Assembly: GCF_000981785.2 (NCBI RefSeq)
Contig: NZ_CP011304.1
Span: forward strand, 2,640,001-2,672,000
Length of the DNA: 32,000 bases
Source: Microcystis aeruginosa NIES-2549
GTDB lineage: Bacteria; Cyanobacteriota; Cyanobacteriia; Cyanobacteriales; Microcystaceae
Reading direction: 5' to 3'
Every line of letters begins with the position of its first letter. Position 1 is the stretch's first letter. The translations under genes and the position numbers were made by a program. Below the pieces are notes generated by a model. It was given only the letters and a program-made list of their open reading frames with translations. It searched no databases and was not told the DNA's origin. This document shows positions 10,314 through 29,580 of the stretch, in pieces.

Positions 10314-10318
10314 CTAAA

Positions 10319-13500: not shown

Positions 13501-13575
13501 GAAAGGGGATAGCGCTTTAACTGGTACGACGGGCAGAAGTAGGAGGCTTAGGAGTAGGGGAAAGGGTTTCAACAT
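10525..13575 (-). CDS. Secreted twin trypsin-like (S1) serine protease fused to a long TPR array
   Basis: 1016 aa with a signal peptide. Domain 1 triad contexts are LTNAHV, DLALVEF and GMSGGGIF. Domain 2 contexts are LTADHV, DLAVFQF and GGMSGGAV. At least 12 34-aa TPRs follow (YNNRG.LY...KY.LAL.DY.KAIE.NPN). It is a paralog of 19957-23136. Confidence 0.85.
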   Translation of the reverse strand: MLKPFPLLLSLLLLPVVPVKALSPFSAPAIVAEDSPNAQIERSIRQVTVKITSEINRGSGIIIGKKGSIYLVLTNAHVTRGATTLQIQTHDGQTRTASIAPNSLLEDKDLALVEFSDTRDYPIATIAEFTPNQDRIGLEVVAAGYVAETGQYRTTKGTLEQVSDRPLREGYSVGYSGDIVQGMSGGGIFVDGELIGINGRSAHPILSNYIYEDGTKPTDAEIQQMRAVNWGISLHTLLTYIRPEILSAYNLPLPQVNPDIETTAPTDYIAELETKAKGFTVRIDSSSTANGSGVIIAKKGNIYTVLTADHVLCEKKKSQDAASKPCLNFTYTVVTSDGKTRNIEKSTIIRQKGVDLAVFQFESQDNYPVAEIANYNPNTSDFVFAAGFPKIGDNPSKWLFSGGIILDKELGLLLTRQSDLSTQQSGTLQSVASLTGGYELVYTSITFGGMSGGAVLDSQGRVIGIHGRSEGAGVTEIQLGYSLGIPISTFIGLQERLKVKPQLLTTAQPQVSPQQQQEIIQAITGVIVPNTNAKADIWIQRGGQLWRLARDQEAIKAFDEAIKQNDPDNVYLAWYGKGLALFELREHQPAIEALQQAINTLPKRENLKKFHSSILQRQSVVYRFLGDFSKIAGTEREARENYEQALTVINQAISLVPNNPNYYNEKWAVLSELKRYDEGLAAITQAIDLAPRAAWYVNRGILYRRQQKYELALDDYNKAIKLNPNHANAYNNRGNLYYDLQKYDLALADYDKAIEINPNFAILYYNRGGVYYNQQKYELALSDINKAIDINPNYAEAYYNRGNIYYDLQKYELALSDINKAIELNPNYAEAYNNRGLLYKDLQKYDLALSDYSKAIDINPNLAEAYVNRGVLYRLQEKYDLALSDYSKAIEINRNLAGTYYNRGVLYRLQEKYDLALADWNKAIEINPNYAEAYVNRGVLYFEQKKYELALSDYNKAIEINPNDAKAYLGRGGLYAILGQPEKAKIDLQQAAILFRQQNNMAAYEKVMQLLQQLGG

Positions 13576-13614
13576 GGTTATTATGGGGAAATTCGGGGTA
13601 AAACAGCGAAAATT

Positions 13615-14223
13615 CTAGCGGGTGGGAACGCAATTATTTTGCGGGCCAGCAGATCTCGTACCACAGGGTGCGTCGCGATCGGCGAGTGGTGCTTTGGCGA
13701 AAAACTCCGTCATCGAGATATAGGTTTTATCTCCGGAATTCTGGAGGAGCATATCCGAGCTTTTCCCCTCTAGGATGTCCATGAGTTGTTGCAAGACTAA
13801 ATCTGGATTGTCGTGGGGTTTAAGGGTAAAAAGTTGGCTATTACCATCGCAGGGATCGCCGGATCGTGAAACGCTGCAGATGATCGGGTATCCCTTCGCC
13901 CGGCCGGTGGTGAGATAGTTAAAACGCCCTTGATTATAGGCTTCCTGGAATTTTTTCGTGACTTCCTCGCAACGAACCGGGGAACGTTTGGAGAAATATT
14001 CCGATTTCCAGCCGATAATCCGCACATTGCCGCTCCTTTGGGGAATCCAAGCCAGGGTAGCGGGGATTTTTCCTCCCGATGCGCGATCGAACACCTCTTT
14101 ACAGAAGAAGGTGACGCCATTCGGGGTGGTCGATTGGCTGAAACCGGGGGCGATACCACCGAGGAGGACAGTGGCGAGGAGGCCGACGCAAGCGAGACGG
14201 TGGGAAATATATCTAGAGTTCAT
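13615..14223 (-). CDS. COP23-domain (circadian oscillating protein 23-like) secreted protein
   Basis: 202 aa with a signal peptide. The FFC...PATLAW...IIGWKSEYF...RCEEV..KFQ...LTTG...GYPIIC...C...QLFTLKP pattern matches my memory of the cyanobacteria-specific COP23 family. Confidence 0.65.
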   Translation of the reverse strand: MNSRYISHRLACVGLLATVLLGGIAPGFSQSTTPNGVTFFCKEVFDRASGGKIPATLAWIPQRSGNVRIIGWKSEYFSKRSPVRCEEVTKKFQEAYNQGRFNYLTTGRAKGYPIICSVSRSGDPCDGNSQLFTLKPHDNPDLVLQQLMDILEGKSSDMLLQNSGDKTYISMTEFFAKAPLADRDAPCGTRSAGPQNNCVPTR

Positions 14224-14282
14224 AGGGATAGTTCCTCAGAAAATAGGGATTAGAATCGTGATTAGGGTCAAAATGGGATTAT

Positions 14283-15383
14283 TTAAGGGTTAGCGGCGGC
14301 GTTGAGGGTGTAGCGACCCGATTCACCCCCTTCGCGAGAGGTAGCCACTAGGATATAAACTCCATCGGCAGGTAATTCGGTTACAAGTCGAGCGTTAAAA
14401 TCCCCGGGGGCGCGATCGACGCGCTGGTTACTACGGGCGACCTGTGGGTATTTTGTCCCCTCGGAAGATTGGAAAACGCGATAGAGGACAAGATAGGGAG
14501 CGATCTCGTTGCTGTTCATATCCAGAACGATTTTCTGTCCGGCACGACCCTCGAACCCGTAATATTGTTGGTTTTGGTCTTTGGTCAAGTTGCCTTGAAC
14601 GGTCTGACCGTTAAGAGGGAGGGCGAGTAACTGTACCTGATCGTCCTGTCCTAATGTTGAGACGGTGGAGACATCACCTGTTTTAACTGCGGTGAGGAAA
14701 GCTTGCAGGCGATCGAGGGAAACGGCGAAATTAATGCCGCTCTGGGTAAGGCCGATCGGGTTTCCCGCACCGTCGTAAACGTAACTCCCGATATCGCCTG
14801 CGACGTTAACCCCCACCACTTCCCCCCGTGAATTCAAAAGCGGCCCGCCGGAATTGCCTTTGTTGATATTAGCGTTGTGTTGCACAATGCCTTTTTCGGG
14901 GTCGAGACGGCTGATAATGCCCTGGGTGAGGGTGTTTTGATAGTCCTCGTTTAAGGGTGTGCCGATGACGAAAACGCTTTCGCCGACTTTGGCGGAGTTC
15001 GCACGGGCCAGGGGAAGATAGGGCAGGTTTTGGCGGTTATAAATCCGCAGGACGGCTAAATCCACGCCATTTTTAGCGAAGCCGATCACGTCTGCCGAGG
15101 CCTGCTGTCCGTTGGAAAATTTCACCGTCACCACCCGCGGTCCGTCCGCAACAACGTGGGCGTTGGTAATGATGATACCGTCGGGACTGACGAGAAAGCC
15201 GCTACCGTGGCCGCTGCCATTTTTGACGGTGACGACGGCGGGGCTGGCTTTCTGATAGACTCTAGAAGCGGTCTGCTCCTGCGCGAGGATGGGTGGAACG
15301 TTTTCCATCAGGAAGTTTCCCGGTTGAACGAGTAGGCCAGTGGTGGCCAGTAGCACCGATAGGGTGAAAGTAATTGGTTTCAT
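14283..15383 (-). CDS. Secreted trypsin-like/HtrA-like S1 serine protease with a C-terminal PPC-like beta domain
   Basis: 366 aa with a signal peptide. Triad contexts are ITNAHVV, DLAVLRI and GNSGGPLL. The C-terminal roughly 110 aa (YYGFEGRAGQKIVLDM...GVYILVATS...GRYTL) resembles a pre-peptidase C-terminal domain. No PDZ domain is evident. Confidence 0.8.
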   Translation of the reverse strand: MKPITFTLSVLLATTGLLVQPGNFLMENVPPILAQEQTASRVYQKASPAVVTVKNGSGHGSGFLVSPDGIIITNAHVVADGPRVVTVKFSNGQQASADVIGFAKNGVDLAVLRIYNRQNLPYLPLARANSAKVGESVFVIGTPLNEDYQNTLTQGIISRLDPEKGIVQHNANINKGNSGGPLLNSRGEVVGVNVAGDIGSYVYDGAGNPIGLTQSGINFAVSLDRLQAFLTAVKTGDVSTVSTLGQDDQVQLLALPLNGQTVQGNLTKDQNQQYYGFEGRAGQKIVLDMNSNEIAPYLVLYRVFQSSEGTKYPQVARSNQRVDRAPGDFNARLVTELPADGVYILVATSREGGESGRYTLNAAANP

Positions 15384-15526
15384 CGGGTTGGCTCCTCTTT
15401 AGTCGAGGGATACTTGCAAGGATGTTATCGTTGGTTTTTTCCCAATTATGCGATTAAGTTTTAAGTCTTCAGATTGCTTTTTTCACAAAAGTTTAGAGGG
15501 GGAGAGCGATCGCTCTCCCTTGCAAC

Positions 15527-16021
15527 TTACGCACCTATCTGCCGTAGTGCTTCTATGGCGCTGTTGTACATTTCTGGGTTTCCCTGCTGGCGAAATAATT
15601 CGGCGGCCGTTGTTAGATCGGCGATCGCATTTTGTCTCTGGTTAAATGCGAGATGGACGTATCCGCGGAAATGGTAAGCGTAGGCAGCGCGGGGGTTTAG
15701 TCGGATCGCGGTGTTCAGGTCTTGAAACGCCGGCCGCCATTGTTCACGAATCGTGTAAATCATGCCCCGACCGAGGTAAGCTTCGGTATAGTCCGGATCG
15801 AGTTCGATCGCTCTGTTGAATTGAGCGAGGGCGAGATCATATTTTTCCTGTTGGATGTAGTTAATTCCCCGGTTAAAGTGGGCGATCGCTTTTTTGTAGT
15901 TCGCTTGAGTGATCAGGGTTTCGACTGGTTGTCGGCTTTCTAGGGCCATAACGGGGCGAACAGTGGCGAGGGTGGAGAGGCCGAGCAGGCTGACGGTGGT
16001 GAGAAGGGCAAAGGATTTCAT
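15527..16021 (-). CDS. Small secreted TPR protein
   Basis: 164 aa with a signal peptide and 3-4 TPRs (YDLALAQFNRAIELDPDY...). Its C-terminal tail AAELFRQQGNPEMYNSAIEALRQIGA is shared with the large TPR proteins. Confidence 0.8.
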   Translation of the reverse strand: MKSFALLTTVSLLGLSTLATVRPVMALESRQPVETLITQANYKKAIAHFNRGINYIQQEKYDLALAQFNRAIELDPDYTEAYLGRGMIYTIREQWRPAFQDLNTAIRLNPRAAYAYHFRGYVHLAFNQRQNAIADLTTAAELFRQQGNPEMYNSAIEALRQIGA

Positions 16022-16199
16022 GGGTAGTGCCTCGGTGAGGGTGATTTGAACTTCTACCTAATTCATCGGTTGTTTTTTTGGGAATATGCAGAATAGGGCA
16101 ATCAATTTTTTTTCCTTTCGGGTACAAAAGGAAAAAGCGCGGCAATCGGCATCGCTTTGTTATCATTTAGTGAAAAATACTTGTTTTTTTTGATGCAAT

Positions 16200-16757
16200 A
16201 TGGTAAGCAAATCCCCGACGATTACTGATGCGGAATTAATTCGCCTCAGTTGTCAGAACCCGGAATTAGGCTTTGAACGCAATGCAGATGGAACGTTAGT
16301 CACTATGCCCCCGATCGGAAGTATTTCAGCGAATCGAGAACTGAAAGCCGGCGCTCGCCTGCTCTACTGGGTCGAACAGAACGGGTTAGGAGAGGTATTT
16401 AGTTCTAGCGGCGGTTTTAAACTGGCCAATAGCGCGGTACGCTCTCCCGATGTGGCTTTCGTGGCGAGAGAACGTTTACCGTCCGGTTGGCAGGAAAGGG
16501 AGGATGAATTTCTCGATCTCGCGCCGGATTTCGTGATCGAGATCCGTTCTAAAACCGATAGTTTATCCAAGTTAAAGCGGAAAATGGAGGAGTATCGGGA
16601 GAACGGGGTGAAGTTAGGATGGTTGATTGATCGCCACAATAAACAGGCTTTCGTCTACCGTCAGGACGGGACGATTACCTGTTATCCCGAGAACGCGATT
16701 TTAAGCGGGGAAGATGTGGTTCCGGGGTTCACCCTAGCGCTAGAAATCTTGCTGTAA
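16200..16757 (+). CDS. Uma2-family (DUF820) PD-(D/E)xK putative endonuclease
   Basis: 185 aa. The pattern PDVAF...DLAPDFVIEIRS...K...Y...GVKLGWLID is typical of Uma2 proteins, which are abundant in cyanobacteria. Confidence 0.8.
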   Translation: MVSKSPTITDAELIRLSCQNPELGFERNADGTLVTMPPIGSISANRELKAGARLLYWVEQNGLGEVFSSSGGFKLANSAVRSPDVAFVARERLPSGWQEREDEFLDLAPDFVIEIRSKTDSLSKLKRKMEEYRENGVKLGWLIDRHNKQAFVYRQDGTITCYPENAILSGEDVVPGFTLALEILL

Positions 16758-16802
16758 GATCGATCGCTTTTTTCGGGGTGAGATTCAAAATCGATCGAGT
16801 AT

Positions 16803-16935
16803 CTAGACCGCGCCTAATTGCCGTAGGAATTGCAGGGCTTTTTCGCGTGCTGGCGCGTTCCCTTGCTGGCGGAACAGTTCGGCGGCTTGTCGGAAATCCT
16901 CGATCGCTTTTTCCTTGTCTAGCCGATAGACGTAA
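16803..16935 (-). pseudogene. Orphan 3' fragment of a TPR gene (last roughly 43 codons)
   Basis: YVYRLDKEKAIEDFRQAAELFRQQGNAPAREKALQFLRQLGAV* is homologous to the C-terminal tails at 15527, 10525 and 19957. Everything upstream is replaced by repeat copy D. The 62- and 88-aa track ORFs here read through repeat DNA. Confidence 0.65.
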
Positions 16936-16937
16936 GG

Positions 16938-17066
16938 AACCCCAACAATAGACCCAAGGAAACCCAACAAAAAGGAAACCCAACAATACACCCAAGGAAA
17001 CCCAACAAAAAGATTCAGACGGATTTAGATTTTGGGTGTTGGGTTTCGCTCCGATGACCCAACCTA
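16938..17066. repeat. Cassette-boundary element, copy D (multiplied left-arm modules, internal deletion of the core)
   Basis: Several (g)gaaacccaacaa modules are followed by agattcagacggatttagattttgggtgttgggtttcgct, which joins directly to gacccaaccta. The roughly 55-bp cctgagaattgagagg...tattcgc block is missing. Confidence 0.8.
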
Positions 17067-17212
17067 GGAAAGGATGCGATCGCTTTTCGTTCTCTAAAAC
17101 AGTGATCGCACCAAGATGACAAGCACTGTAGCATAACCCACCGAATATTATAAAATTGATGGTGCGTTACATTTCATGCTTGGCGAAATCCGGCAAAATA
17201 AGCTTTAACCTC

Positions 17213-17449
17213 ATGCCAGAAATTTTCAGACTGGAAGGCTATGTTTTCTTTTTCTATGCCAATGAAGGCAATGAACCCATGCACGTTCACGTTCGACGGG
17301 GCGGCGGATATGCTAAATTTTGGCTAGAGCCGCTAGAATTGGATTATGCTAAAGGTCTAAAAACCAAAGAAATTGTTCGGGCTGAAGTTATCATTACAGA
17401 AAATATAGAAATAATACGGAGGAAATGGCACGATGTATTTGGTACATGA
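17213..17449 (+). CDS. DUF4160-family small protein
   Basis: MPEIFRLEGYVFFFYANEGNEPMHVHV... is the characteristic DUF4160 N-terminus. I prefer the ATG at 17213 over the track start at 17156. It overlaps the next ORF by 17 nt. Confidence 0.7.
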   Translation: MPEIFRLEGYVFFFYANEGNEPMHVHVRRGGGYAKFWLEPLELDYAKGLKTKEIVRAEVIITENIEIIRRKWHDVFGT

Positions 17450-17681
17450 AAGCATAGTAAAAGCTCAAAAAGTTTGGGTTGAAGATAAATGGATTTGTAT
17501 TCGTTTAGAAGACGATAGAGAAATTCGTTTTCCTGCTTATAAAAATAAACGCTTATCAAAAGCAACCTTTGAACAATTAGCAGAGGTTGAGTTAATTTGT
17601 GATGGCACGGGATTACATTGGGAAACCTTAGATGAGGATTTGTCCATCATTGGCATTTTAGAAGGAAGATTGGGTGCTTAA
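17433..17681 (+). CDS. DUF2442-family small protein (partner of DUF4160)
   Basis: 82 aa. The ...V....L.IRLEDDREIRFP......L..AT..QL..VELI.DGTGLHWE.LDEDLS pattern is typical of DUF2442, and the pairing with DUF4160 is typical. Confidence 0.7.
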   Translation: MYLVHESIVKAQKVWVEDKWICIRLEDDREIRFPAYKNKRLSKATFEQLAEVELICDGTGLHWETLDEDLSIIGILEGRLGA

Positions 17682-17717
17682 ATGTTAAATGCTTAAAAAA
17701 AATCGGCTCTACCGAAC

Positions 17718-17867
17718 CTAGTAATCATAGCAATTATCGTCGATTGGGTTGACCCAAGGAAACCCAAAAAAAAGATTCAGACAGATTTAGGTGTTGGGTG
17801 TTGGGTTGCGCTTTTCCTGAGAATTGAGAGGTTTTCTTTAACATATTTATTCGCTCAACCCAACCTA
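17718..17867. repeat. Cassette-boundary element, copy E (complete, extended left flank)
   Basis: It shares tagtaatcatagcaattatcgtcgattgggttgaccc...caacccaaccta with copy F. The hepT stop codon (cta at 17865-17867) is the last 3 nt of the element. Confidence 0.9.
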
Positions 17868-18203
17868 AGAAACTGATTCTAGATATCTTAAAATCTGTTC
17901 TTTCAAATCATCCAAATAATTTTCTACCACCTCCCAAACTGTATTAAGGTCAATTCCCCCTAAATAATCATGTACTAAAATATTCCTAAAACCAGAAATA
18001 TTACGCCAGTCAACATCGGGAATATTGACCTTTAATTCCTCCGAAAGCCGTTGAGTTGATTCTGCCAAAGTTTGTAAGCGTCTAATGATAGCATCGCTGA
18101 TCATTGAATTAGCAAAAAACTCCTGTTTTCCTCCTTGGGAATAGTCCTTAATTTTATCAATACAGTCTAAAATGTATTCAAGATAAACTTGATCTTCATT
18201 CAT
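17865..18203 (-). CDS. hepT: HepT-like (DUF86) RNase toxin
   Basis: 112 aa with the R(x4)HxY motif in FRNILVHDY. There is an ATGA start/stop overlap with mntA. Confidence 0.85.
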   Translation of the reverse strand: MNEDQVYLEYILDCIDKIKDYSQGGKQEFFANSMISDAIIRRLQTLAESTQRLSEELKVNIPDVDWRNISGFRNILVHDYLGGIDLNTVWEVVENYLDDLKEQILRYLESVS

Positions 18204-18493
18204 AACTTAATTGCCTCCTTTAAGATTCGCTGTTTAATTAGATGATGAAGGCTTTTTTCAGTTACTACATCCACTTTACACCCTAAGAGAGCCTCTAAAT
18301 CAACTAATAATCCACCTGGAAACCAAGGGGACGTTTTAGCTAAATCATAATCAATTAAAAAATCAATATCACTATTTTCGGTTTCCTCACCTCTAGCAAC
18401 GGAACCAAATACACGCACATTAAAAGCACCATGTTTGGTGGCAATTTTTAGGATATCCTCTCGTTTGTCTTGTATGAGTTGTTTTAAGGTCAT
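18200..18493 (-). CDS. mntA: MntA-type nucleotidyltransferase antitoxin
   Basis: VRVFGSVARGEETENSDIDFLIDY is the minimal nucleotidyltransferase GS...DxD motif. I prefer the start MTLKQL at 18493 over the track start at 18529. Confidence 0.85.
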   Translation of the reverse strand: MTLKQLIQDKREDILKIATKHGAFNVRVFGSVARGEETENSDIDFLIDYDLAKTSPWFPGGLLVDLEALLGCKVDVVTEKSLHHLIKQRILKEAIKL

Positions 18494-18579
18494 AAAATAA
18501 CATCCCTCCCGAAGGTTTTTAATGAACAATTAACAGACTAGACTAGAAAAAACTAAATACTGATAACTCACCCCCCCAC

Positions 18580-18722
18580 TTATTGCCCTAATTTGCGTAA
18601 AAGTTGCATCACCTTTTCATAAGTTGCCATATTATTCTGCTGGTAGAATATTATAGCTGCTTGTTCTAGGTCAATTTTTGCTTTTTCGGTTTGTTTTAAT
18701 TTGGCATATAAAAGACCACGAC
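18580..18722 (-). pseudogene. Orphan 3' fragment of a twin-trypsin-TPR gene (last roughly 47 codons)
   Basis: GLLYAKLKQTEKAKIDLEQAAIIFYQQNNMATYEKVMQLLRKLGQ*. By eye, the DNA is roughly 90% identical to 19957-20097. The 99-aa track ORF is a chimera that reads on into a hicB fragment and a MITE. Confidence 0.75.
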
Positions 18723-18751
18723 TACTGACCTTATGAACGATGGCTAAATAA

Positions 18752-18884
18752 GGGACTTGCGTGCGAATAATATCCCAATTGATCGGAGGGCGCAAGCTTT
18801 GCGCCCCTACAGTAACCGATTTTGTCCACAATGTAGGGGCGAACTGCGTTCGCCCAAAAGGTACATTATCAAAGCGCAAGTCCC
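18752..18884. mobile_element. 133-bp MITE with 10-bp terminal inverted repeats and a TAA target duplication
   Basis: TIR gggacttgcg (18752-18761) and its reverse complement cgcaagtccc (18875-18884). It is flanked by taa (18749-18751) and taa (18885-18887). Internal GC hairpins are gggcgcaagctttgcgccc and ggggcgaactgcgttcgccc. Confidence 0.75.
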
Positions 18885-18907
18885 TAAGTAATCATTGATT
18901 TCTCATT

Positions 18908-19252
18908 TCAGGTTCGCATTAGATTATATTCTTCGCGGATTGATGAAGTTAGAGATTCCACTAAGATTAATTTTTCCTCAATTGACAGGTTTTTTCCTTG
19001 TTTAATTAATGTTTGTAAAGTCATTTTTTTTAAATCAAATTCCGGCACAAGTAGAGCCAATTCTTGTGTTTGTTGATTTTGTAAGTCAGTAATTAATTCT
19101 TGTAAAAATAGAGAATCATTACTTAAGTCCGAAATTTCATCTTCATAGTTTTCGAGAGCTTCTATTTGTTGAATACGGTCACTATAATTTTTGAGAAGGG
19201 ATTCGAGAGCTTCGATAATAAATTGGATGTCTTTAAATGATAGAGTTTTCAT
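18908..19252 (-). CDS. Hypothetical acidic helical protein, C-terminus resembling 'putative addiction module component' antitoxins
   Basis: 114 aa. The C-terminal LSIEEKLILVESLTSSI resembles the L..eeR..L...L..SL motif of Unstab_antitox-type antitoxins. No toxin partner is present. Confidence 0.4.
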   Translation of the reverse strand: MKTLSFKDIQFIIEALESLLKNYSDRIQQIEALENYEDEISDLSNDSLFLQELITDLQNQQTQELALLVPEFDLKKMTLQTLIKQGKNLSIEEKLILVESLTSSIREEYNLMRT

Positions 19253-19282
19253 AGTTTACCTCAACTTACTTTTTTAAATCCT

Positions 19283-19432
19283 ATAGTAATCATAGCAATT
19301 ATCGTCGATTGGGTTGACCCAAGTAAACCCAAAAAAAAGATTCAGACGGATTTAGATTTTGGGTGTTGGGTTTCGCTTTTCCTGAGAATTGAGAGGTTTT
19401 CTTTAACATATTTATTCGCTCAAACCAAGCTA
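19283..19432. repeat. Cassette-boundary element, copy F (complete, right terminus degenerate)
   Basis: It aligns with copy E over its whole length and lies 10 nt beyond the hicB stop. Confidence 0.9.
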
Positions 19433-19442
19433 GGGACTGCAC

Positions 19443-19739
19443 CTAGTTTTTTACACACAATTCCTGATGGTTTAAAATAGCTTCTGATACCTCAATGAGC
19501 AGAAAAGCGATCGCATCTTGATGATCCGCGTCGGTTAAAATGGTTTCGAGGGTGCTAGGGGTGGGAATTTCGTCCCCATCTGCCAACATGAAGGAAATAT
19601 GACCTTTTAAGGCTTCAGTTGCCATTTTTTTCGCTTCTTCGATGGTTTCTCCTGCACTAATACAACCCGGAAAGTCATAAAATTGTACCCCATAATCACT
19701 ATGGTTATCTTTATGAACGGTGGCTAAATAAGTAATCAT
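19443..19739 (-). CDS. hicB: HicB-family antitoxin
   Basis: 98 aa. MITYLATVHKD...YGVQFYDFPGCISAGETIEEAKKMATEAL is the HicB N-terminal fold signature. It follows hicA by 11 nt. Confidence 0.85.
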   Translation of the reverse strand: MITYLATVHKDNHSDYGVQFYDFPGCISAGETIEEAKKMATEALKGHISFMLADGDEIPTPSTLETILTDADHQDAIAFLLIEVSEAILNHQELCVKN

Positions 19740-19750
19740 TTATTTCTCCT

Positions 19751-19939
19751 TTATCGTAATTTAATACCAGCTTGTTTTTCGATACTGATTAGGGTTTTAA
19801 GGGGAATATCCTTTTTAGGGTGAGGAACAGTCACTTTCCCTTTTTTATGGGGATGTTTAAAATGATGATGACTTCCTGTTGTACCTACTTGATACCATCC
19901 CTCATCCTTCGGTTTTTTGATAATTTCTCGACTTTCCAT
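19751..19939 (-). CDS. hicA: HicA-family mRNA interferase toxin
   Basis: 62 aa. GWYQVGTTGSHHHFKHPHKKGKVTVPHPKKDIPLKTL matches the HicA core, including the catalytic His context. Confidence 0.85.
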   Translation of the reverse strand: MESREIIKKPKDEGWYQVGTTGSHHHFKHPHKKGKVTVPHPKKDIPLKTLISIEKQAGIKLR

Positions 19940-23149: not shown

Positions 23150-23367
23150 AGTTTGCTGAATAAATGTGAAATGTAGGCAAGGTAAGAGTTTTGTCGTTTT
23201 TCTCGTGAAACAGGTGCAAGATTTTGAGAGAATCGTGCCTCAAAACCTTGCGTCTTCATCAGCCCGGATCCTGTAGGGGCGAAGCATTCGGGCAATAACC
23301 TATCGGTGAAACCGGAGATTTTCTATCCGAATGCTTCGCCCGTACTTTTTCAGCAAGCCTTACCTTG
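23150..23367. mobile_element. Roughly 218-bp MITE (family with agggtttgctgaa-type termini) carrying an internal GC hairpin
   Basis: Termini are agtttgctgaataaa (23150-) and ctttttcagcaagcc (-23359), plus gcaaggtaag/cttaccttgc. An internal perfect hairpin is ggggcgaagcattcgg (23276-23291) / ccgaatgcttcgccc (23327-23341). It fills the gap between the CHAT-CHASE2 stop and the protease-TPR start. Confidence 0.6.
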
Positions 23368-25830
23368 CTATTTTAAGTAGTAAGAACGAAGAAAAAAGAA
23401 GATACCGGAGGTGGTGAGAAGTGCGATCGCTGGGGGAATAATCGGAACCCAGAGACCGAAATAACTAAAGAGAAGCCAACCGATACCAGTAAGGGAAATC
23501 ACAGCGATCGCCACTGTCAAAAGTACCGTTTTTACCCGAAGAAAACGCCACGTTAATAATCCCCCCACCAGGGACCAACCCAACACCCAGAAAGCCTCCT
23601 GTAGGGGATTCCAGAAAGCGATCGAGGTACGTTTTCCTTCCATTGTATCGAGAATTTGACTGACTGCGTGCGCGTGCAAATAAACCCCCGGAATTGCTTC
23701 CGATGGGTTGCGACTAAAGGGGGTTAAAAAATCATCAATCCCGGGTTCTGTTACTCCAATCAGGACAATTTTTTCCCGGACTGATTCGGAATTAAAACCC
23801 GGATCTAAAACCTGTCGGAGAGATTTTTTCGGGGCAATTTTTATGATTGCATCGCTGCCATTATCGGCGATTCGACGGTAAGCGAGCATAACTTGACGGC
23901 CGGATCGGGTATCGGATTGACTGGTTCTATAGGGGCCGCGGTTGGATTGTAGCCAGTCACCGAGATGAGTATCCCCGATATTAATTTCTAGAATTCCCCG
24001 CTCCAGTTTATTGCAGTCAAAATCTTGATTCTGGGATTCTAGATATCGTTTGGCAATTAGGAGACTAAAACTAGGAGCATAATCTTTAAAATTACAGGAC
24101 ATTGAGTCAACTGTGGCCAAAGAATCCGGGGGAAGACAGGGAGAGGTGCGATCGAGTTTTGCCTGATATAAAAAACGACGAATTCGGGGAACTCCGGCAA
24201 TGGTTTCGTCTGGGACTATGTTACTAAAACCACTCTGATTTTTTGGCAGTTCCGGGGGTGGGGGAAATCCGTCCGGTTGCGGGTAATTATTAAACTTACA
24301 AATCGAGATAAAATTAGGAGTATTTTGTAATTGTTTGGCTAGGGGTGGATAATCTTGACTGGCAGCGATGGGACGGAGGATATCTAAGGCGATAATTTGC
24401 GGTTCGTAGGGCAGTAATTTATTTAAAAGCTGCGATAATGCTTCTCCTGCGAGGGAACGTTTTTGATCGCTTCCGGGTATTGTTGGTCTTTTCATACCCA
24501 TGCGATCTTGATATTCCCAATCTTGGCGATCGATGGTAATAATTAATAATCTGTCATCGGGTTTATCTTTGGGTTTTAGTTGCATCAGGCGATCATAAAT
24601 ATTTAATTCTAAGGGTTCTAAAATTCCTGTTTCTCTTATTGCCAAGACTGTCATCGTTACGGCTAAACCTAAACCGAAAGTTAGAGCAAATCTTCGCCAA
24701 TTTTGTTGTTTTTGAGGGGAGTTACTGAAACTATGCCAAGTGGGGGGTTCTTCGGTGGGATTGGGGCAAACTACGGGCAGCCAACTGGCACAGGGATAGT
24801 CTTTTTCCCAATCATCGTGGAGATTTTTTTGGGCTTCATGTACGGCGCTATAGAGAGATTTATTATTGGTAAAAGCGGTTAAAAAGTATTGCAGAAATTT
24901 GGGAGAAACAGGATCGGGTAATTTCTCGCGCATAAAGATTAGATGGGGTAATGCCATCCCTTTTTCCCGTGATAGTTGTTGTGCCAAACCGATACCATCA
25001 CAGGAGTTAAATATCGCTAACTTTAACCCGTTTTTAGTGGCTTCTCCCAGGGAAAAGCTAAAATCAGCTATCTTTAATTTATGAGTTTCTGTTAGTTGAA
25101 TTTCGCAATTTTGACCATCTTCTGTACTGGCACTATGACCGCTAAAAAAGAGAATATTCCAAGTTTCTTGACGCAATAACTGATTTAATTTTTGCGGGTG
25201 AGGGGCTTTTTCCCAGATAATTTCTGCTCCTGCTTTTCCCGCAATATCGTCTAAAGTTTTGCGATCTTCTTCGAGAAATCTTAAGTCGGTGGCATAGCCT
25301 AAAATGGCTAAAATCCGAATTTTTTCATGATTTCTTAATTGTCTGGTTAAGGTATCGTATTCTGAGACAATAATGGCTATATCTGCGCCAGTATTTTGGA
25401 GGATTTCCCATTTTTCCCAGGGGAATCTTTGCAGCCAAATATTATCGGTTTGTAACCAGATACGAAAGTTATTGCCAGAGCGCAGAATTGCGGTTTTGAT
25501 CGGTTCAAATTCTGGGCTATTATTCAACCATCTGTTTAAGTTATCCTCAAATAATTCGGCTTTTTCTTGGCAGTTTTTAAAGACTAAACTCTGCTGAGAA
25601 CTATTGGTAATTTGTTGGGGATTGCTATCTTTTAAGACTTTAAAAAATCCCTCTAGTTCACTATAGTGACGTTGCCATTGACGGTAAAGAGTTAATAACT
25701 CTAAATTAGCTGGTAGCCTTGCTTTGATCACAGTTTGGGGACGAGAATTAAGATCGGGACGAATTTCTAATTTTACTTTAAATCCCCGATCAAATGTGCC
25801 ATCTAGTTCGAGAGTTAGGAGTTTAATCAT
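23368..25830 (-). CDS. Membrane protein: N-terminal CHAT (caspase-like, clan CD) protease domain + TM + periplasmic CHASE2 sensor domain + 3 C-terminal TMs
   Basis: 820 aa. The CHAT dyad contexts are NILFFSGHSAS (His) and LAIFNSCDGIG (Cys). The TM is FALTFGLGLAVTMTVLAI. The CHASE2 N-terminal signature is LELNIYDRLMQLKP...RLLIITIDRQD...QIIALDILRP. Three C-terminal hydrophobic helices follow. Confidence 0.8.
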   Translation of the reverse strand: MIKLLTLELDGTFDRGFKVKLEIRPDLNSRPQTVIKARLPANLELLTLYRQWQRHYSELEGFFKVLKDSNPQQITNSSQQSLVFKNCQEKAELFEDNLNRWLNNSPEFEPIKTAILRSGNNFRIWLQTDNIWLQRFPWEKWEILQNTGADIAIIVSEYDTLTRQLRNHEKIRILAILGYATDLRFLEEDRKTLDDIAGKAGAEIIWEKAPHPQKLNQLLRQETWNILFFSGHSASTEDGQNCEIQLTETHKLKIADFSFSLGEATKNGLKLAIFNSCDGIGLAQQLSREKGMALPHLIFMREKLPDPVSPKFLQYFLTAFTNNKSLYSAVHEAQKNLHDDWEKDYPCASWLPVVCPNPTEEPPTWHSFSNSPQKQQNWRRFALTFGLGLAVTMTVLAIRETGILEPLELNIYDRLMQLKPKDKPDDRLLIITIDRQDWEYQDRMGMKRPTIPGSDQKRSLAGEALSQLLNKLLPYEPQIIALDILRPIAASQDYPPLAKQLQNTPNFISICKFNNYPQPDGFPPPPELPKNQSGFSNIVPDETIAGVPRIRRFLYQAKLDRTSPCLPPDSLATVDSMSCNFKDYAPSFSLLIAKRYLESQNQDFDCNKLERGILEINIGDTHLGDWLQSNRGPYRTSQSDTRSGRQVMLAYRRIADNGSDAIIKIAPKKSLRQVLDPGFNSESVREKIVLIGVTEPGIDDFLTPFSRNPSEAIPGVYLHAHAVSQILDTMEGKRTSIAFWNPLQEAFWVLGWSLVGGLLTWRFLRVKTVLLTVAIAVISLTGIGWLLFSYFGLWVPIIPPAIALLTTSGIFFFLRSYYLK

Positions 25831-25845
25831 TAAGTTTTTCCTCGC

Positions 25846-26973
25846 TTATACTTGTAAATATTCGGTTACTCTTGCCGATTCTAAAGCCACTTCAATAAAG
25901 AATTTATCCCCCAATTCAGCATCAAATCGATAACGAATAAATTCATCGTTATCTGTGGCAATTACTTCTCGAAAAACCTGACCAGTTTCGGTGAGAATAG
26001 TTAATTTTAAATGGGGGGGTAAAGTGCTTGTTTCTCCCGTGGGGTAAACAGTCGCTTGCAGGCTAAATATTTCTTCAATTTTAGCGATAGTAATCATCAA
26101 AGCGAGGGGATTTCCCAGTAATTCTACTCCTAAATCTTTGATGCGTTTAATTTCTGTATTTTTGAATGCTGGAACCAGTGACAGTGAGCTAAAATTGAGG
26201 ATACTTTGCCAATCAATGGGGAAATTATCAGTAAACCAATTGGTTAACTTGACGGGGGATTTTTGCCGACGGGTAATTAAAATTTTTCTCCAGTTACTAT
26301 TGACGATTACTGCTGCCCATTCCTGAAAAGTAACGGCTTTTCTGGGAAAGATTAACTGAGGATTAGCTAAGATGTCTAGTAAGGTTGTCAATCTATCTAA
26401 AGATAGTTTTTCCTCCATCTTTTCCCGTTCAATCTTAACTGGTTGCAATTGATACTCTCCCCATAAATCCAAAGAATCTGATCCTGATTGCAGTTGATTT
26501 CTCGGTAGAGAGTAGTTAAGATTACGCTTAATATATTGTCCTTTTTCCTTAATATCTTTATGGGTAGTACAACCCCAAATTCTCAGATGACTTTCGGCAG
26601 TGTTTACCTGTACAGCTAGATAATAATCACCAATTAATTGAGGAATATCTACCCATTCTTGAGGAATTTCGATCGCTTCTAGATCCAGAGTTTCGCTGGC
26701 AATAAATATTACTGACTTTTCGCCTAATTTAACGGTAAAACCATTAACTCCTAGTTGCCAGAAATCCTCTTGATTTTCTACTAAGCTAACCCCAGGCATC
26801 CCTGACTGTAGATAGTTAAAAATAACTTGTTGACAGAGATAATTAATATAAAATCTCTGACGAATACTGGCATCAGTAAAACTGGCACTTTTTGCCCAAC
26901 TTATCTCTTGAATATCTGCGGGTATTTCTAGCCAAATGCTATCAGGAGTTAGTTCTAACCAATCATTAACCAT
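25846..26973 (-). CDS. DUF1822-like protein (cyanobacterial family of unknown function)
   Basis: About 375 aa from ATG 26973, which has an AGGAGG 7 nt upstream and lies 2 nt after the preceding stop. The N-terminal block SWAKSASFTDASIRQRFYINYLCQQVIFNYLQ resembles the DUF1822 signature as I remember it. The track start at 27024 overlaps the upstream gene. Confidence 0.6.
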   Translation of the reverse strand: MVNDWLELTPDSIWLEIPADIQEISWAKSASFTDASIRQRFYINYLCQQVIFNYLQSGMPGVSLVENQEDFWQLGVNGFTVKLGEKSVIFIASETLDLEAIEIPQEWVDIPQLIGDYYLAVQVNTAESHLRIWGCTTHKDIKEKGQYIKRNLNYSLPRNQLQSGSDSLDLWGEYQLQPVKIEREKMEEKLSLDRLTTLLDILANPQLIFPRKAVTFQEWAAVIVNSNWRKILITRRQKSPVKLTNWFTDNFPIDWQSILNFSSLSLVPAFKNTEIKRIKDLGVELLGNPLALMITIAKIEEIFSLQATVYPTGETSTLPPHLKLTILTETGQVFREVIATDNDEFIRYRFDAELGDKFFIEVALESARVTEYLQV

Positions 26974-26975
26974 AA

Positions 26976-28223
26976 TTAATCCTCCTGAGTTGTTGCGCTG
27001 GTTTGATAGTAGTATGTTAGCCATGGTTCTATTGCCTTACTAATAACTTCTCTATCGTGAGACTGGAAAGAAATATGCAGGTTTTCGCTGGCCCAGGGTA
27101 AAAACTTTTTAGCGAGGTGACGATAAACTTTATCCAGTTCCCTAGAAACCTGATATTGTTTGATAACTACCGTGGTAATTTCTGTAATCTTAGCGGCAAT
27201 TGCCACTTGTCCCAACCCTGAACCATAAGTCATCTCTAGAATTAACTGAATTTGCGGATGCAGTTTTGCCTGTTGCGGCTGCTGACAAATCTGTTGAATT
27301 TCTGCGCGTAACCAAGCTAGAATTTTTTGGTGGTTTTGTTGCGACTCGCGAAAATTTTCCGCCGCTTCTAATTGCTGCCAAGGGTTATTATGGAGAGTAT
27401 CTTCGATCATTTCCTCCCTCGTGCTACTTTCCTCACCCCCTAAAGGTTGCTGTAGAGAAATTGTTTTTCCTTGGGGAAATAAATAATCAGAAATAGCTTG
27501 TCCCGCATCCTTTAACCATCGGGTAATTGTCGCAGAATTGATTTTGATGGTAGAGTGGCTATCCGAGTTATAAGCAGCGGCGATTTTTTGCCAGATTTCT
27601 GGACTAGGTTCCTGAATTTTACCATCGGTTTTGATTTTTGCCTGGGCATAAATTTCTTTATAGTAATCCCAAGCTAAAAGGTAATTTTCGAGAGTTTCCC
27701 CCACTAATCCCCTCGCCCGGAGAGCTTGGCTGAGACGCGCTCCGGTAGAATTAAGTAGTAGGCTCCAAGTATTATGGCCGAATGCTTGACTAATCTGGCG
27801 GATGCGATCGATTAAGCGATATTTAATCCTCTGATTGGCAAAATTATCGAAGCGAGTGGAGAATAAAGGCTTAAAGTCAGCTAAGATAGCCTCAAAACCA
27901 AGAATTCCTTCGTTAAAGTAGTCTTCGATCTGATAATCTAGTTTAGCTTGATATTTTTGATAGATTTCGGCAGCAGCCCAGTAGCAAGGTTCCTGCAAAT
28001 AAGCGTATAAATGCCCACGAAAAAGATGATTTTGGGAACCGGGATTCTGATACTGTTGCTGAAAGAATAGGGACCAATACTCCTCGGACTCGACATTAGG
28101 ATCGATTGGGCCATAGCTTTCCATGTTACGACGCAAACGCCGATCACAATTCCATTGTGTCCTATTTTGCTGCAAAACTAAAAAGCAACAAAACTTCTCC
28201 AGCAAAGTCTCTCGTTTTTTCAT
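26976..28223 (-). CDS. Divergent sigma-70-family-like protein
   Basis: 415 aa. The region-2-like segment is DYFNEGILGFEAILADFKP...FDNFANQRIKYRLIDRIRQ. The region-4-like HTH is LILEMTYGSGLGQVAIAAKITEITTVVIKQYQVSRELDKVYRHLAKKF. It has a long N-terminal extension and a central insert. Confidence 0.6.
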   Translation of the reverse strand: MKKRETLLEKFCCFLVLQQNRTQWNCDRRLRRNMESYGPIDPNVESEEYWSLFFQQQYQNPGSQNHLFRGHLYAYLQEPCYWAAAEIYQKYQAKLDYQIEDYFNEGILGFEAILADFKPLFSTRFDNFANQRIKYRLIDRIRQISQAFGHNTWSLLLNSTGARLSQALRARGLVGETLENYLLAWDYYKEIYAQAKIKTDGKIQEPSPEIWQKIAAAYNSDSHSTIKINSATITRWLKDAGQAISDYLFPQGKTISLQQPLGGEESSTREEMIEDTLHNNPWQQLEAAENFRESQQNHQKILAWLRAEIQQICQQPQQAKLHPQIQLILEMTYGSGLGQVAIAAKITEITTVVIKQYQVSRELDKVYRHLAKKFLPWASENLHISFQSHDREVISKAIEPWLTYYYQTSATTQED

Positions 28224-28732
28224 CTAGCTACTCCCCGTGGAGGTCAACTAAACTCTCTATCGTTCCACTTCGAGATTTTATGCAGTATTATAGCAGTTAT
28301 CTTAATGGTGAGGTACAAAGTTTTCGTTTTAGAGAGTCGGTTGTCGGTCGTCAACAGCAAATTAGATTATACTTGATCTTGATAAGAAAGGCTGTAATAT
28401 TTATCTATTAATTGTCCTTCTACAGCCAATTGAGTCAAGTAGAAAAAGAGGAATGGAAAAAGGTTAGTCATGGAAATGCCGATTTAGTGGGGGAAATTTG
28501 GCACGATTTTATAGAACCATACCAAGTAAGGAAGAACCCTATCCCTACTCTCAAAATTATCCTTTGATGGAATATCCAGAGGAGTTTTTATGTTTAGAAA
28601 AGAAGTAATCTGATTTAATCAATTATCTATTAGCGTTAATTCTGCTGTGTTTAACAGAATTATTTATGATAATTTTTCCTTAATTACTCAATTAGGAAAC
28701 TGGGTATAGCAGCATCTATTAACTGCATTTGG

Positions 28733-28803
28733 TCGGCACTTTTGAGGAAAAAAAAGCCTAAAAACCTTGTTGGATAAGGTTTTTAGATTTTATTCAGCAA
28801 ACC
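28733..28803. repeat. Partial inverted copy of the agggtttgctgaa-type MITE end
   Basis: ggtcggcacttttgagg...ctaaaaaccttgttggataaggtttttagattttattcagcaaaccct is the reverse complement of 30242-30318, with a few differences. Confidence 0.7.
28748..28786 (-). terminator. Candidate rho-independent terminator of the M48 peptidase gene (lies within the MITE fragment)
   Basis: On the - strand, the stem ctaaaaacctt / aaggtttttag has a 7-nt loop and is followed by a T8 run (A8 at 28748-28755 on the + strand). Confidence 0.5.
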
Positions 28804-29580
28804 CTAGTTATTAATCGAATTAAGCTGTTTTTGCAGTGCCACAATGCGATCGCTTGTAGCTGGATGGGTGCTGAGAATTGTCGGGGTAGAACCCCCCTGT
28901 TGTGCTAATTTTCGCATAAAGGAGATCATCGCCGTGGGTTCATAACCAGCCCTGGCCAAATTTTTTAAACCCAGTCGGTCCGCTTCTAATTCATCCTTGC
29001 GACTGTTTGGTAAACTGTAGGCGAGATTGACTGCCAATTGTACCCAAGTTTTTGTCTCTAGTCCCGCCGCACTGAGAAGTCCTTGGGCGAGGGCAGTATT
29101 GCGTAATTGGGTGATAGAATGACGACCGACGATATGGCCGATTTCATGGGCAATCACGCTGGCTAATTCTGCCTCATTATCAGCACTTTTAATCAATCCC
29201 GTGTGTAAATAGACAAATCCGCCCATAGTGGCGAAGGCGTTAATGCTATTGTCGCGCACCACTTGAAAAGTGTAGGGAAGGTCAGGGCGATCGCTAGTTG
29301 CGGCTAATCGCTGCCCGATTTCGTGGACATATTGGTTAATTCTGGCATCTTTGGACAGTTTCACCTTACCTGATTCTAATAAACCTTGATTAATCTGCCT
29401 ACCGATGGCGACTTCCTGCTGAGGAGAAATAGTGGAGAGTTGAATAACTTGCACACCCCGAAAAAGTAAATCCATCCACGAGAGCGCGAAACTGGTTTGG
29501 GGATTGATAATCCCGATATTCAGGCTCAGCAGCAGAGAAATTATTGTTAATAACCAAAAACGGTAGAAAATAGGGCGCAT
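28804..29580 (-). CDS. M48-family zinc metalloprotease
   Basis: 258 aa with an N-terminal TM or signal segment, HEIGH in IAHEIGHIVGRH, and a downstream E..AD motif (ELEADRLG). Confidence 0.85.
   Translation of the reverse strand: MRPIFYRFWLLTIISLLLSLNIGIINPQTSFALSWMDLLFRGVQVIQLSTISPQQEVAIGRQINQGLLESGKVKLSKDARINQYVHEIGQRLAATSDRPDLPYTFQVVRDNSINAFATMGGFVYLHTGLIKSADNEAELASVIAHEIGHIVGRHSITQLRNTALAQGLLSAAGLETKTWVQLAVNLAYSLPNSRKDELEADRLGLKNLARAGYEPTAMISFMRKLAQQGGSTPTILSTHPATSDRIVALQKQLNSINN

Follow-up and report, generated by a model that had tools for sequence, protein, structure and literature searches.

An EACC2-caspase, DUF1822 and sigma factor locus of Microcystis aeruginosa: a candidate protease-based transmembrane signaling system

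The sigma factor, DUF1822 protein and CHAT-CHASE2 receptor

We analyzed a 32,000-nt stretch of the Microcystis aeruginosa NIES-2549 genome (contig NZ_CP011304.1, positions 2,640,001 to 2,672,000; hereafter the window, to whose positions all coordinates refer), which carries three minus-strand genes encoding a divergent sigma-70-family factor (gene 1), a DUF1822 protein (gene 2), and a membrane receptor that combines a CHAT (caspase-like) protease domain with a CHASE2 sensor (gene 3). A preliminary description of the sequence had proposed that this triad is tightly packed, and direct reading bears this out: the gaps are 2 nt between the sigma and DUF1822 genes and 15 nt between the DUF1822 and receptor genes, and the AGGAGG reported before the second gene is present 8 nt ahead of its start. 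The minus-strand order is M48 peptidase, sigma, DUF1822, CHAT-CHASE2, a 231-nt gap, twin-trypsin-TPR (gene 4), HicA, and HicB. Among species-representative genomes, the nearest relatives are M. aeruginosa NIES-4325 (L002) and Microcystis wesenbergii (L003), with 97-98% identity. The locus is collinear among Microcystis species, and all three genes are under purifying selection (dN/dS of 0.20-0.31 between Microcystis genomes, ∼0.30 for the sigma gene). A scan of the window for consensus promoters and terminators returned counts matching those of shuffled sequence, the only convincing element being a terminator-like hairpin after the M48 gene. PADLOC 2.0 models gave no match for genes 1-3 and only generic matches for the trypsin domains.

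Pfam supports both domains previously assigned to the gene 3 product, with CHASE2 matched at residues 392-758 (E 1.3e-47) and CHAT upstream of it (Table 1). Hydropathy analysis places one transmembrane (TM) helix at residues 380-399 (TM1) and three hydrophobic helices within residues 744-815, reproducing the described 1+3 TM arrangement. The topology predicted from the sequence has the N-terminal domain and CHAT in the cytoplasm, followed by TM1, a periplasmic CHASE2 domain, and the three C-terminal helices. CHASE2 receptors usually consist of a TM helix, a periplasmic domain, three TM helices, and a cytoplasmic output domain C-terminal to the last helix. The gene 3 product shares the sensor and TM topology of this class and has no C-terminal output domain, its sole enzymatic domain being N-terminal. 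Because the protein ends 5 residues past the last TM helix, the cytoplasmic protease is its only output domain.

The His (FFSGHS) and Cys (FNSCDG) contexts highlighted in the preliminary description belong to a conserved dyad: among 27 homologs, C277 is invariant and H232 is at least 90% conserved. Profile-profile alignment with hhalign (E 7.9e-5) superimposes these residues on the catalytic positions of canonical CHAT domains, the His of ATHG and the Cys of LSAC. This alignment was used in place of a single-sequence hhalign comparison, which gave an E-value of 0.069 and misplaced the Cys. A profile of the N-terminal domain plus CHAT had no sequence match in the PDB.

Homologs spanning the first 368 residues of the gene 3 product number 171 (31-62% identity), and in all of them the ∼105-residue N-terminal domain is conserved over its full length, with G16, L39, W101, and L102 invariant. 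Their C-termini vary and include CHASE2, TPR, nSTAND, GTPase, cyclase, LysM, FGE-sulfatase, and CVNH domains (Pfam families PF20703, PF01926, PF00211, PF01476, PF03781, and PF08881). Residues 1-368 share 38% identity with a Fischerella CHASE2 protein (L032, L044) that is labeled EACC2+CASPASE+CHASE2+TM+TM in the source data of Kaur, Iyer, Burroughs & Aravind (eLife 2021; PMC8195603), and through this match the N-terminal domain of gene 3 can be assigned, on sequence similarity, to EACC2. With its constant N-terminal domain, His-Cys dyad, variable C-terminus, and DUF1822 and sigma neighbors, the window locus belongs to the EACC2-caspase systems.

Taken as a single sequence, gene 1 is a borderline sigma factor, scoring 42.3 bits against a cutoff of 42.9 for TIGR02937 and 13.8 bits for Pfam Sigma70_r2. 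The assignment, first made from sigma-like segments and a long extra N-terminus, is solid at the family level. A profile of 29 full-length homologs of ∼400 residues matches SigF, FliA, RpoS, WhiG, and SigA in the PDB (best E 6.8e-12) across sigma2 (profile positions 77-147), sigma3 (224-307), and sigma4 (286-366), and 25 of the 29 members match Sigma70_r4. The top 50 PDB folds retrieved by Foldseek with an AlphaFold2 (AF2) model of gene 1 (pLDDT 81.8) are all sigma factors, with ∼360 aligned columns; the closest PDB relatives of the family are SigF, FliA, and RpoS. The region between sigma2 and sigma4 is folded and helical, and aligns with region 3 of RpoS and SigA. The layout comprises an N-terminal extension of ∼60 residues, sigma2 (∼65-147), a sigma3-like region (∼152-248), a disordered linker (251-284), and sigma4 (∼285-381), without any TM segment by hydropathy. 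The extension is conserved in the long sigma family (FSTF...RF..W..D.RL.RSM) and predicted to form a beta-hairpin. Group 4, or extracytoplasmic function (ECF), sigma factors are minimal sigma2-sigma4 proteins of ∼170-250 residues that lack sigma3; because the profile and fold matches cover regions 2, 3, and 4, we class gene 1 as a sigma2-sigma3-sigma4 protein and not as a minimal ECF factor. The 96%-identity cluster of the sigma gene alone contains 1419 sequences.

Gene 2 matches DUF1822 in Pfam with an E-value of 2.5e-61, in agreement with its initial assignment, lacks a TM helix, and is predicted to be cytoplasmic. Its AF2 model (pLDDT 85.1, pTM 0.74) comprises an alpha/beta N-domain (residues 13-160), a helical linker (192-248), and a C-terminal beta-sandwich (274-374). 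The model shows no TPR-like repeats, though Kaur et al. call DUF1822 a TPR protein. Neither fold nor sequence searches of the PDB returned a significant match to the whole protein; the beta-sandwich alone resembles Ig-like, MG, and CARDB domains. From the model and these searches, we rejected descriptions of DUF1822 as a TPR protein or as a known anti-sigma fold. The TRADD-N domain, as set out in the portion of Kaur et al. considered here, is a two-layer alpha+beta sandwich of RRM-like form whose beta2-beta3 turn carries a "uS" motif (PMC8195603). TRADD (1F3V) was absent from the top PDB fold matches of the gene 2 model and from its sequence matches, and the invariant DUF1822 columns held no clear conserved pair of a tiny residue and Ser corresponding to that motif.

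Table 1. Features of the window discussed in the text
Feature	Position	Strand	Remarks
Gene 1, divergent sigma-70-family factor, 415 aa	26976-28223	-	
Gene 2, DUF1822 protein, 375 aa	25846-26973	-	Start MVNDWL
Gene 3, EACC2 + CHAT + CHASE2 receptor (EACC2 by similarity), 820 aa	23368-25830	-	
Putative EACC2 N-terminal domain, gene 3 aa 1-105	25516-25830	-	Conserved in homologs; name from Kaur et al.
CHAT (caspase-like) domain, gene 3 aa 109-367	24730-25506	-	Pfam E 1.3e-10
His232 codon	25135-25137	-	
Cys277 codon	25000-25002	-	
Gene 3 aa 380-820	23368-24693	-	TM1, periplasmic CHASE2, three C-terminal TM helices, stop codon
Strict motif GCATAAAATCTCGAAGTGGAACGATA	28258-28283	-	Ends 35 nt upstream of sigma ATG
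Strict motif GCATAATTGGGAAAAAACCAACGATA	15426-15451	-	43 nt upstream of trypsin366 ATG
One-mismatch motif copy GCATAT...CGATA	27053-27078	-	Inside gene 1 3' end, 80 nt upstream of DUF1822 start
Two-mismatch motif copy GCATAT-N15-CGATG	16064-16089	-	42 nt upstream of TPR164 gene; weak evidence alone
Gene 4, exported twin-trypsin + TPR, 1059 aa	19957-23136	-	Two Trypsin_2 domains, intact H/D/S motifs
MITE-like insertion, ∼218 nt, between gene 3 and gene 4	23150-23367		Inverted repeats
TPR164, small TPR protein, 164 aa	15527-16021	-	First gene of second exported-protease cluster
Trypsin366, exported trypsin-like protease, 366 aa	14283-15383	-	Signal-peptide-like N-terminus; TNAHV / DLAV / GNSGG motifs
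COP23-family exported protein, 202 aa	13615-14223	-	
Second twin-trypsin + TPR paralog, 1016 aa	10525-13575	-	
M48 peptidase gene	28804-29580	-	
Bidirectional terminator-like hairpin after M48 gene	28757-28787		Upstream limit of sigma operon transcription unit

Conserved neighborhoods, exported partners, and a promoter-like motif

Relatives in species-representative genomes number at least 597; counts per locus given here cover the best 80, which were searched with hidden Markov models built for this work and are cyanobacterial except for a few metagenome-assembled genomes labeled "uncultured bacterium". In ∼70 of the 80 loci, the 2.5 kb upstream of the CHAT gene include a DUF1822 gene (on the same strand in 68); a sigma-like gene directly adjoins DUF1822 in 36, and 59 loci are of the CHASE2 type. 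All three grounds on which the preliminary description could have been refuted (profile support, alignment of the dyad, and synteny in other genomes) turned out in its favor. Downstream of the CHASE2-type gene, 45 of the 59 loci carry a secreted DUF928 gene, Microcystis being an exception.

The loci fall into two subtypes. Subtype A, that of the window, pairs a long sigma of ∼400 residues with a DUF1822 subfamily that scores E 1e-115 to 1e-142 against the profile, and subtype B pairs a short sigma of ∼212 residues with a shorter DUF1822 subfamily. The short sigma is weakly ECF-like (SigK/SigE at E ∼0.04) and shares with the long family only weak local similarity in sigma2 (E 0.031). We had considered a single sigma family with an insert, and rejected it: the two types are distinct sigma lineages. 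Throughout the sample, each sigma type is paired with its own DUF1822 subfamily, and the CHAT module scores alike across both subtypes. The sigma-DUF1822 pair also stays intact when divergent from the CHAT gene (L008, L063) and when beside a canonical TPR-CHAT gene (L083). Because the subtypes co-vary, the pair stays together, and the CHAT module is uniform, sigma and DUF1822 probably form a physical pair, with DUF1822 as the link to the protease.

Several loci vary this arrangement. In Calothrix sp. 336/3 (L084, 8001-15341), a Tn7-like TnsA/B-TniB-TniQ element follows the sigma and DUF1822 genes, in the place expected for the CHAT gene. A canonical TPR-CHAT gene of 900-1000 residues is often the neighbor of a sigma-DUF1822 or DUF1822-CHAT-CHASE2 unit (L083, 8001-14280; L028, 5446-8466), and this second CHAT protease may belong to the wider system; in Gloeocapsa sp. 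PCC 7428 (L083), genes with two-partner secretion (TPS) domains adjoin the unit as well. In Oscillatoria princeps (L067, 9941-12460), with DUF1822 upstream, EACC2-CHAT carries a trypsin-like domain at its C-terminus in place of CHASE2, a second, independent link of the module to S1 proteases.

The gene downstream of the receptor encodes an exported twin-trypsin-TPR protein, as had been described, with a signal-peptide-like N-terminus, two Trypsin_2 domains, and TPRs, and HicA and HicB genes follow it. The exported partners in the window all have signal-peptide-like N-termini, and their protease motifs are intact. Five further relatives of the window-type subclade (L082, L085, L086, L087, and L088) were fetched by exact protein look-up, and in four of them the triad adjoins genes for exported serine proteases. 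L082 and L086 share the order trypsin-TPR, trypsin, COP23, sigma, DUF1822, CHAT-CHASE2; L087 reads twin-trypsin-TPR, COP23, sigma, DUF1822, CHAT-CHASE2; L088 (Pannus brasiliensis) reads sigma, DUF1822, CHAT-CHASE2, trypsin-TPR, with a 15-nt gap before the last gene; and L085 has the triad alone. In L082, L086, and L087, sigma is immediately preceded by COP23. All six gene families of these loci are orthologous to window genes, with identities of 50-68% for CHAT-CHASE2, 37-47% for DUF1822, 35-40% for sigma, 39-62% for trypsin-TPR (L082, L086, L087, and L088), 50-55% for trypsin (L082 and L086), and 52-57% for COP23 (L082, L086, and L087). The window keeps the same gene set in rearranged form, with gene 4 after the receptor and a TPR164-trypsin366-COP23-trypsin-TPR cluster (10525-16021) beyond a toxin-antitoxin islet. 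The suspected linkage of the triad to S1-TPR and COP23 genes is borne out by this conserved synteny and by the promoter-like motif described below.

The insertion between receptor and gene 4, previously taken for a miniature inverted-repeat transposable element (MITE), has terminal inverted repeats (23153-23186 and 23346-23368) and an internal 19-nt palindrome, and at least 120 metagenome contigs contain its palindromic core. It is missing from M. wesenbergii, where 13 nt separate the receptor stop codon from the trypsin-TPR ATG, versus 231 nt in the window. These features support the MITE reading. Given gaps of 13 nt (L003) and 15 nt (L088) and an insertion in the window, we conclude that the ancestral unit in this lineage was a four-gene operon that included trypsin-TPR. 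The receptor/trypsin-TPR junction is a hot spot for small palindromic elements: in NIES-4325 (L002, ∼12450-12520) a different short palindromic insertion alters the extreme 3' end of the receptor gene, and L003 has neither insertion.

Inspection of upstream regions first suggested a bipartite motif, GCATAA-N14-16-CGA(C/T)(A/T) (that is, GCATAA-N14-16-CGAYW). Its strict form occurs twice in the window versus 0.11 expected, both times on the minus strand and ahead of the sigma and trypsin366 genes (Table 1). The sigma-gene copy is conserved in L002 and L003, and the motif lies 36-39 nt upstream of sigma in L085 and L088. No separate motif precedes sigma in L082, L086, and L087, where sigma follows COP23 by 73-91 nt; the sigma gene is thus downstream of a motif in all six loci. 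Together the six subclade loci (112.5 kb) contain 10 strict matches, versus 0.7 +/- 0.8 in dinucleotide shuffles (maximum 3 in 200), and 8 of the 10 sit 31-60 nt upstream of a sigma, trypsin, COP23, or trypsin-TPR start codon. One site, that of a COP23 paralog in L086 (COP23b), is outside the set from which the pattern was derived. Beyond this subclade, 1.39 Mb of other loci that were not used for deriving the pattern yielded 18 strict matches versus ∼8.7 expected; eight are system-linked, and the remainder is at about chance level. At one mismatch or fewer, the motif precedes the open reading frame (ORF) by ∼33 nt in 25 of 79 DUF1822 genes, versus ∼1 expected; these are mostly Nostocales loci in which DUF1822 is the first gene, and their spacers diverge while the half-sites persist. 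L002 and L003 retain the one-mismatch copy at the 3' end of gene 1, and in the Nostocales loci a motif occupies the corresponding place before DUF1822; the copy in gene 1 is possibly an internal promoter.

Related sequences were seen elsewhere. The Nostoc long-sigma loci L045, L054, and L063 have conserved blocks ∼130 nt upstream of sigma, CTGCATATCACTCT(C/T)TACGA(T/C)G and TTTATGCAC, with half-sites as in the GCATAA/CGATA motif and a spacing of only 9 nt. In L014, L016, and L033 (∼9895-9924; Coleofasciculaceae, Waterburya), GCATAAG.TA.AGATGA.TGGAGATA, with one mismatch, lies between the DUF1822 and CHAT genes. A recurrent antisense one-mismatch "motif" in the CHAT gene was rejected, as it is conserved YRQWQ coding sequence.

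The preliminary description had found genes 1 and 2 and the CHAT-encoding half of gene 3 rich in AT and poor in CGATCG. The numbers agree (GC of 0.42 for sigma, 0.37 for DUF1822, and 0.39 for the CHAT half, with 0-0.9 CGATCG per kb, versus 0.44 and 3.7 per kb for the CHASE2 half and 0.48 and 3.1 per kb for the trypsin half), but the pattern is not special to the triad, as both TPR-encoding halves and the stretch 8136-10524 are equally low. Because the switch falls in the middle of gene 3 and recurs in both TPR-encoding halves, composition tracks domain type and is no island marker; a foreign origin was rejected on the grounds that GC and CGATCG density shift within single genes. The protease halves of the two twin-trypsin-TPR paralogs have long stretches of identical peptide sequence in common, and in both paralogs the protease half has a GC of 0.48 and ∼3-4 CGATCG per kb and the TPR half a GC of 0.38 and no CGATCG; they were possibly shaped by gene conversion or modular assembly. 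Between the trypsin clusters lies the toxin-antitoxin islet (16200-19939), with HicA/HicB, MNT/HepT, DUF4160/DUF2442, and Uma2 genes, and Uma2 genes also adjoin the trypsin-TPR genes of L082 and L086. Elsewhere in the window (5328-7225, plus strand), two ORFs in different frames, one with an AMIN domain (5328-6701, 457 aa) and one with Amidase_3 (6695-7225, 176 aa), share 7 nt; they resemble a cell-wall amidase of the AmiC type broken by a frameshift, whether genuine or a sequencing error.

A proposed proteolytic relay and its alternatives

We propose, with about an even chance of being right, that in this cyanobacterial EACC2-caspase/DUF1822/sigma system protease-based transmembrane signaling ends in transcription. 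The 820-aa protein would lie in the inner membrane as its sequence predicts, CHASE2 toward the periplasm and EACC2 and CHAT toward the cytoplasm. An extracytoplasmic cue, which the exported trypsin-TPR, trypsin, and COP23 proteins might produce or modulate, would activate the CHAT protease, which would then cleave the cytoplasmic DUF1822 protein, the presumed holder of an inactive sigma in the way that Csx30 is for RpoE. This step is suggested by gene linkage and by the co-variation of sigma type and DUF1822 subfamily. The freed sigma would direct RNA polymerase to GCATAA-N15/16-CGATA promoters, which in the window would serve its own operon (before the MITE insertion, also trypsin-TPR) and the trypsin366-COP23-trypsin-TPR cluster, giving a positive-feedback regulon of exported proteases. 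The toxin-antitoxin genes, HicAB included, which the preliminary description had counted as possible targets, have no motif and are not syntenic in the subclade loci, and we rejected them as part of the system.

Several points weigh against this relay. An output domain N-terminal to the sensor is an unproven geometry for CHASE2 signaling. Proteolysis, the DUF1822-sigma complex, and the identity of the sigma that reads the motif are inferred, and DUF1822 has no similarity, detectable by fold or sequence, to known anti-sigma factors, Csx30, or Csx31. The helix-turn-helix of sigma4 in gene 1 has an insertion and fails the Pfam models. Because many Nostocales DUF1822-CHAT loci have no adjacent sigma gene, sigma is not obligatory in cis. 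As for the motif, it was found post hoc and by eye, in loci that were then used for part of the statistics; its Nostocales sites are not independent counts, since many come from related genomes; and the Nostoc long-sigma loci lack it upstream of sigma.

The same genes could act in conflict with invaders, the frame in which Kaur et al. place the wider EACC2 family. In a system of abortive-infection type, the sensor domain would detect an attack, self-processing by the caspase-like domain would free an EACC2 effector, by analogy with EACC1, and the sigma-DUF1822 pair would only add a transcriptional arm. In favor of this reading, STAND NTPases and GTPases, both typical of immune systems, are among the variable C-terminal "sensors" (PMC8195603), several paralogs occur per locus in L040, L043, L046, L064, and L066, the window locus adjoins a toxin-antitoxin islet, and EACC1 is cut by a caspase-like partner and forms pores (PMC12642450). 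We nevertheless consider it unlikely, because the CHASE2 version is chromosomal, with stable synteny and exported partners (DUF928 in 45 of 59 loci; trypsin and COP23 in the Microcystis-like subclade), is collinear among Microcystis species at a dN/dS of 0.2-0.3, and has neither a PADLOC match for the three proteins nor a toxin-like effector domain; moreover, EACC2 is fused to the protease and is not a separate small protein, and its relation to EACC1 is not demonstrated. Another route to sigma activation is known from Bacillus, where pro-sigmaE and pro-sigmaK are activated by removal of an N-terminal extension. CHAT could in the same way remove the ∼60-residue extension of the long sigma, with DUF1822 as an adaptor or scaffold bringing sigma to the receptor, which would suit both the conserved extension, with its predicted beta-hairpin missing from ordinary sigma factors, and the linkage of DUF1822 to the CHAT and sigma genes alike. 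The ∼212-residue sigma of the commoner subtype, however, keeps the same DUF1822-CHAT partners without any such extension, and in the solved analog RpoE resists cleavage and Csx30 is the substrate (PMC9825189), so that we hold this version to be improbable.

The triad might also be co-regulated neighbors with no proteolytic relay between them, CHAT-CHASE2 having other targets or being a silent scaffold, sigma and DUF1822 forming an independent partner-switching pair, and another sigma reading the motif. Many Nostocales loci do keep DUF1822-CHAT-CHASE2-DUF928 with no adjacent sigma, L083 and L084 have sigma-DUF1822 pairs with no EACC2-CHAT gene, and the window sigma has an atypical helix-turn-helix. 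Strict conservation of the catalytic His and Cys, the position of DUF1822 beside the CHAT gene in ∼70 of 80 loci whatever the C-terminal domain, and the motif that precedes sigma or its operon in each of the six subclade loci make such independence improbable in our judgment.

If the proteolytic relay is true, it would reveal the connections of a bacterial caspase-fold protease to a surface receptor on one side and to transcription on the other, and would give a function to several domains of unknown function at once. To our knowledge, DUF1822, DUF928, COP23, and CHASE2 are widespread cyanobacterial families without a known function or ligand, and we know of no CHAT protease outside CRISPR type III-E with a defined substrate. 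The conserved link to exported proteases and COP23, together with a candidate private promoter, makes the system directly testable, and the locus is tractable: it has a single operon and a single predicted promoter motif, its predicted regulon of exported proteases is small, and Microcystis is a bloom-forming genus. A bolder and more doubtful extension is that the locus represents a third general route of bacterial transmembrane signaling, beside two-component systems and intramembrane anti-sigma proteolysis, in which DUF1822 would be a TRADD-N-like adaptor or anti-sigma that is cleaved and sigma would read a private promoter, GCATAA-N15/16-CGATA. The envelope regulon under its control would consist of exported serine proteases and COP23 or, in other lineages, of DUF928, and the route would be a bacterial counterpart of receptor-adaptor-caspase signaling that serves physiology or colony-level behavior, not suicide.

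Comparison with known systems

The triad and essentially the same model were already published by Kaur et al. (PMC8195603), as far as the parts of that paper considered here extend. In a few sentences, this computational study describes proteins with EACC2 (a constant N-terminal alpha+beta domain), a caspase domain, and a highly variable C-terminus, for example CHASE2, whose genes neighbor those of DUF1822/TRADD-N proteins and ECF-type sigma factors, and proposes that a stimulus activates the peptidase and leads to sigma-dependent transcription. Its source data resolve many "DUF1822 family proteins" as (HTH/EAD4+)TRADD-N+TPRs directly upstream of EACC2+CASPASE+X and list HTH-DUF1822 fusions; the Fischerella row reads TRADD-N+TPRs, EACC2+CASPASE+CHASE2+TM+TM, TM+beta_rich+TPRs. 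The window locus is alike in core architecture, in its DUF1822 and sigma neighbors, and in the peptidase-to-sigma logic. It differs in that DUF1822, there a TPR (or TRADD-N+TPRs) protein, is modeled here without TPRs, and in that its sigma is a ∼400-residue sigma2-sigma3-sigma4 type and not a minimal ECF factor. The links to exported trypsin-TPR, trypsin, and COP23 (or DUF928) and the motif do not appear in the text or source data of that study examined here. New in the present work are the synteny of the triad with exported trypsin-TPR, trypsin, and COP23 genes in the Microcystis-like subclade and the common promoter-like motif, together with the predicted sigma2-sigma3-sigma4 layout and the modeled alpha/beta plus beta-sandwich form of DUF1822. 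Overall, the observation in the preliminary description is confirmed; its interpretation is partly supported, being reasonable, largely anticipated in print, and unproven at the proteolytic step.

In the literature sampled, no experimental work on the triad was found, and nothing combined CHASE2, a CHAT domain, and cyanobacteria. A similar receptor was reported in Trichodesmium erythraeum IMS101, where an N-terminal caspase homolog precedes one TM helix, an extracellular CHASE2 domain, and three further TM helices. This protein was found through Peptidase_C14 and read as a receptor with cytoplasmic protease output (PMC2853523, PMC3501461). Domain order and the 1+3 TM helices are alike, which does not imply kinship of this metacaspase-CHASE2 protein to the EACC2-CHAT family, and in the portions of Jiang et al. 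2010 and Asplund-Samuelsson et al. 2012 considered here it is treated as a single protein, with no partner genes or regulon discussed. EACC1 is a separate small protein, a protease-activated pore-forming toxin (PMC12642450, where CalpT is also mentioned). EACC1-caspase modules resemble the present system in combining a constant small component and a caspase-like protease with varied sensors and a proteolysis-gated output. They differ in that EACC2 is fused to the protease and shows no sign of a toxin role.

In E. coli DegS/RseP-RseA-sigmaE and in the CRISPR-linked CalpL-CalpT-CalpS system, an extracytoplasmic or second-messenger signal leads to cutting of a sigma-binding protein and to sigma release; exported serine proteases take part in the sigmaE pathway, and its sigma gene is autoregulated. 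The relay proposed here would likewise lead from an extracytoplasmic signal to sigma release with an autoregulated sigma gene. It would differ in using a cytoplasmic caspase-fold cysteine protease fused to the receptor, and a presumed anti-sigma that is soluble, without a TM helix, and has no significant whole-protein fold match in the PDB.

The nearest tested analog is Craspase of type III-E CRISPR systems, which combines Cas7-11, Csx29 (TPR-CHAT), Csx30, and RpoE (PMC9825189, PMC9729208). The window locus has no CRISPR context, and its sensor is a periplasmic CHASE2 domain fused to the protease, where Craspase has the RNA-guided Cas7-11 complex. Csx30, the protein cut by Csx29, has a Kd of ∼0.2 uM for RpoE, and RpoE itself is left uncut (PMC9825189). 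The likeness would lie in a CHAT-family protease that is inactive until its sensor fires and whose substrate, Csx30 in Craspase, binds a co-encoded sigma factor.

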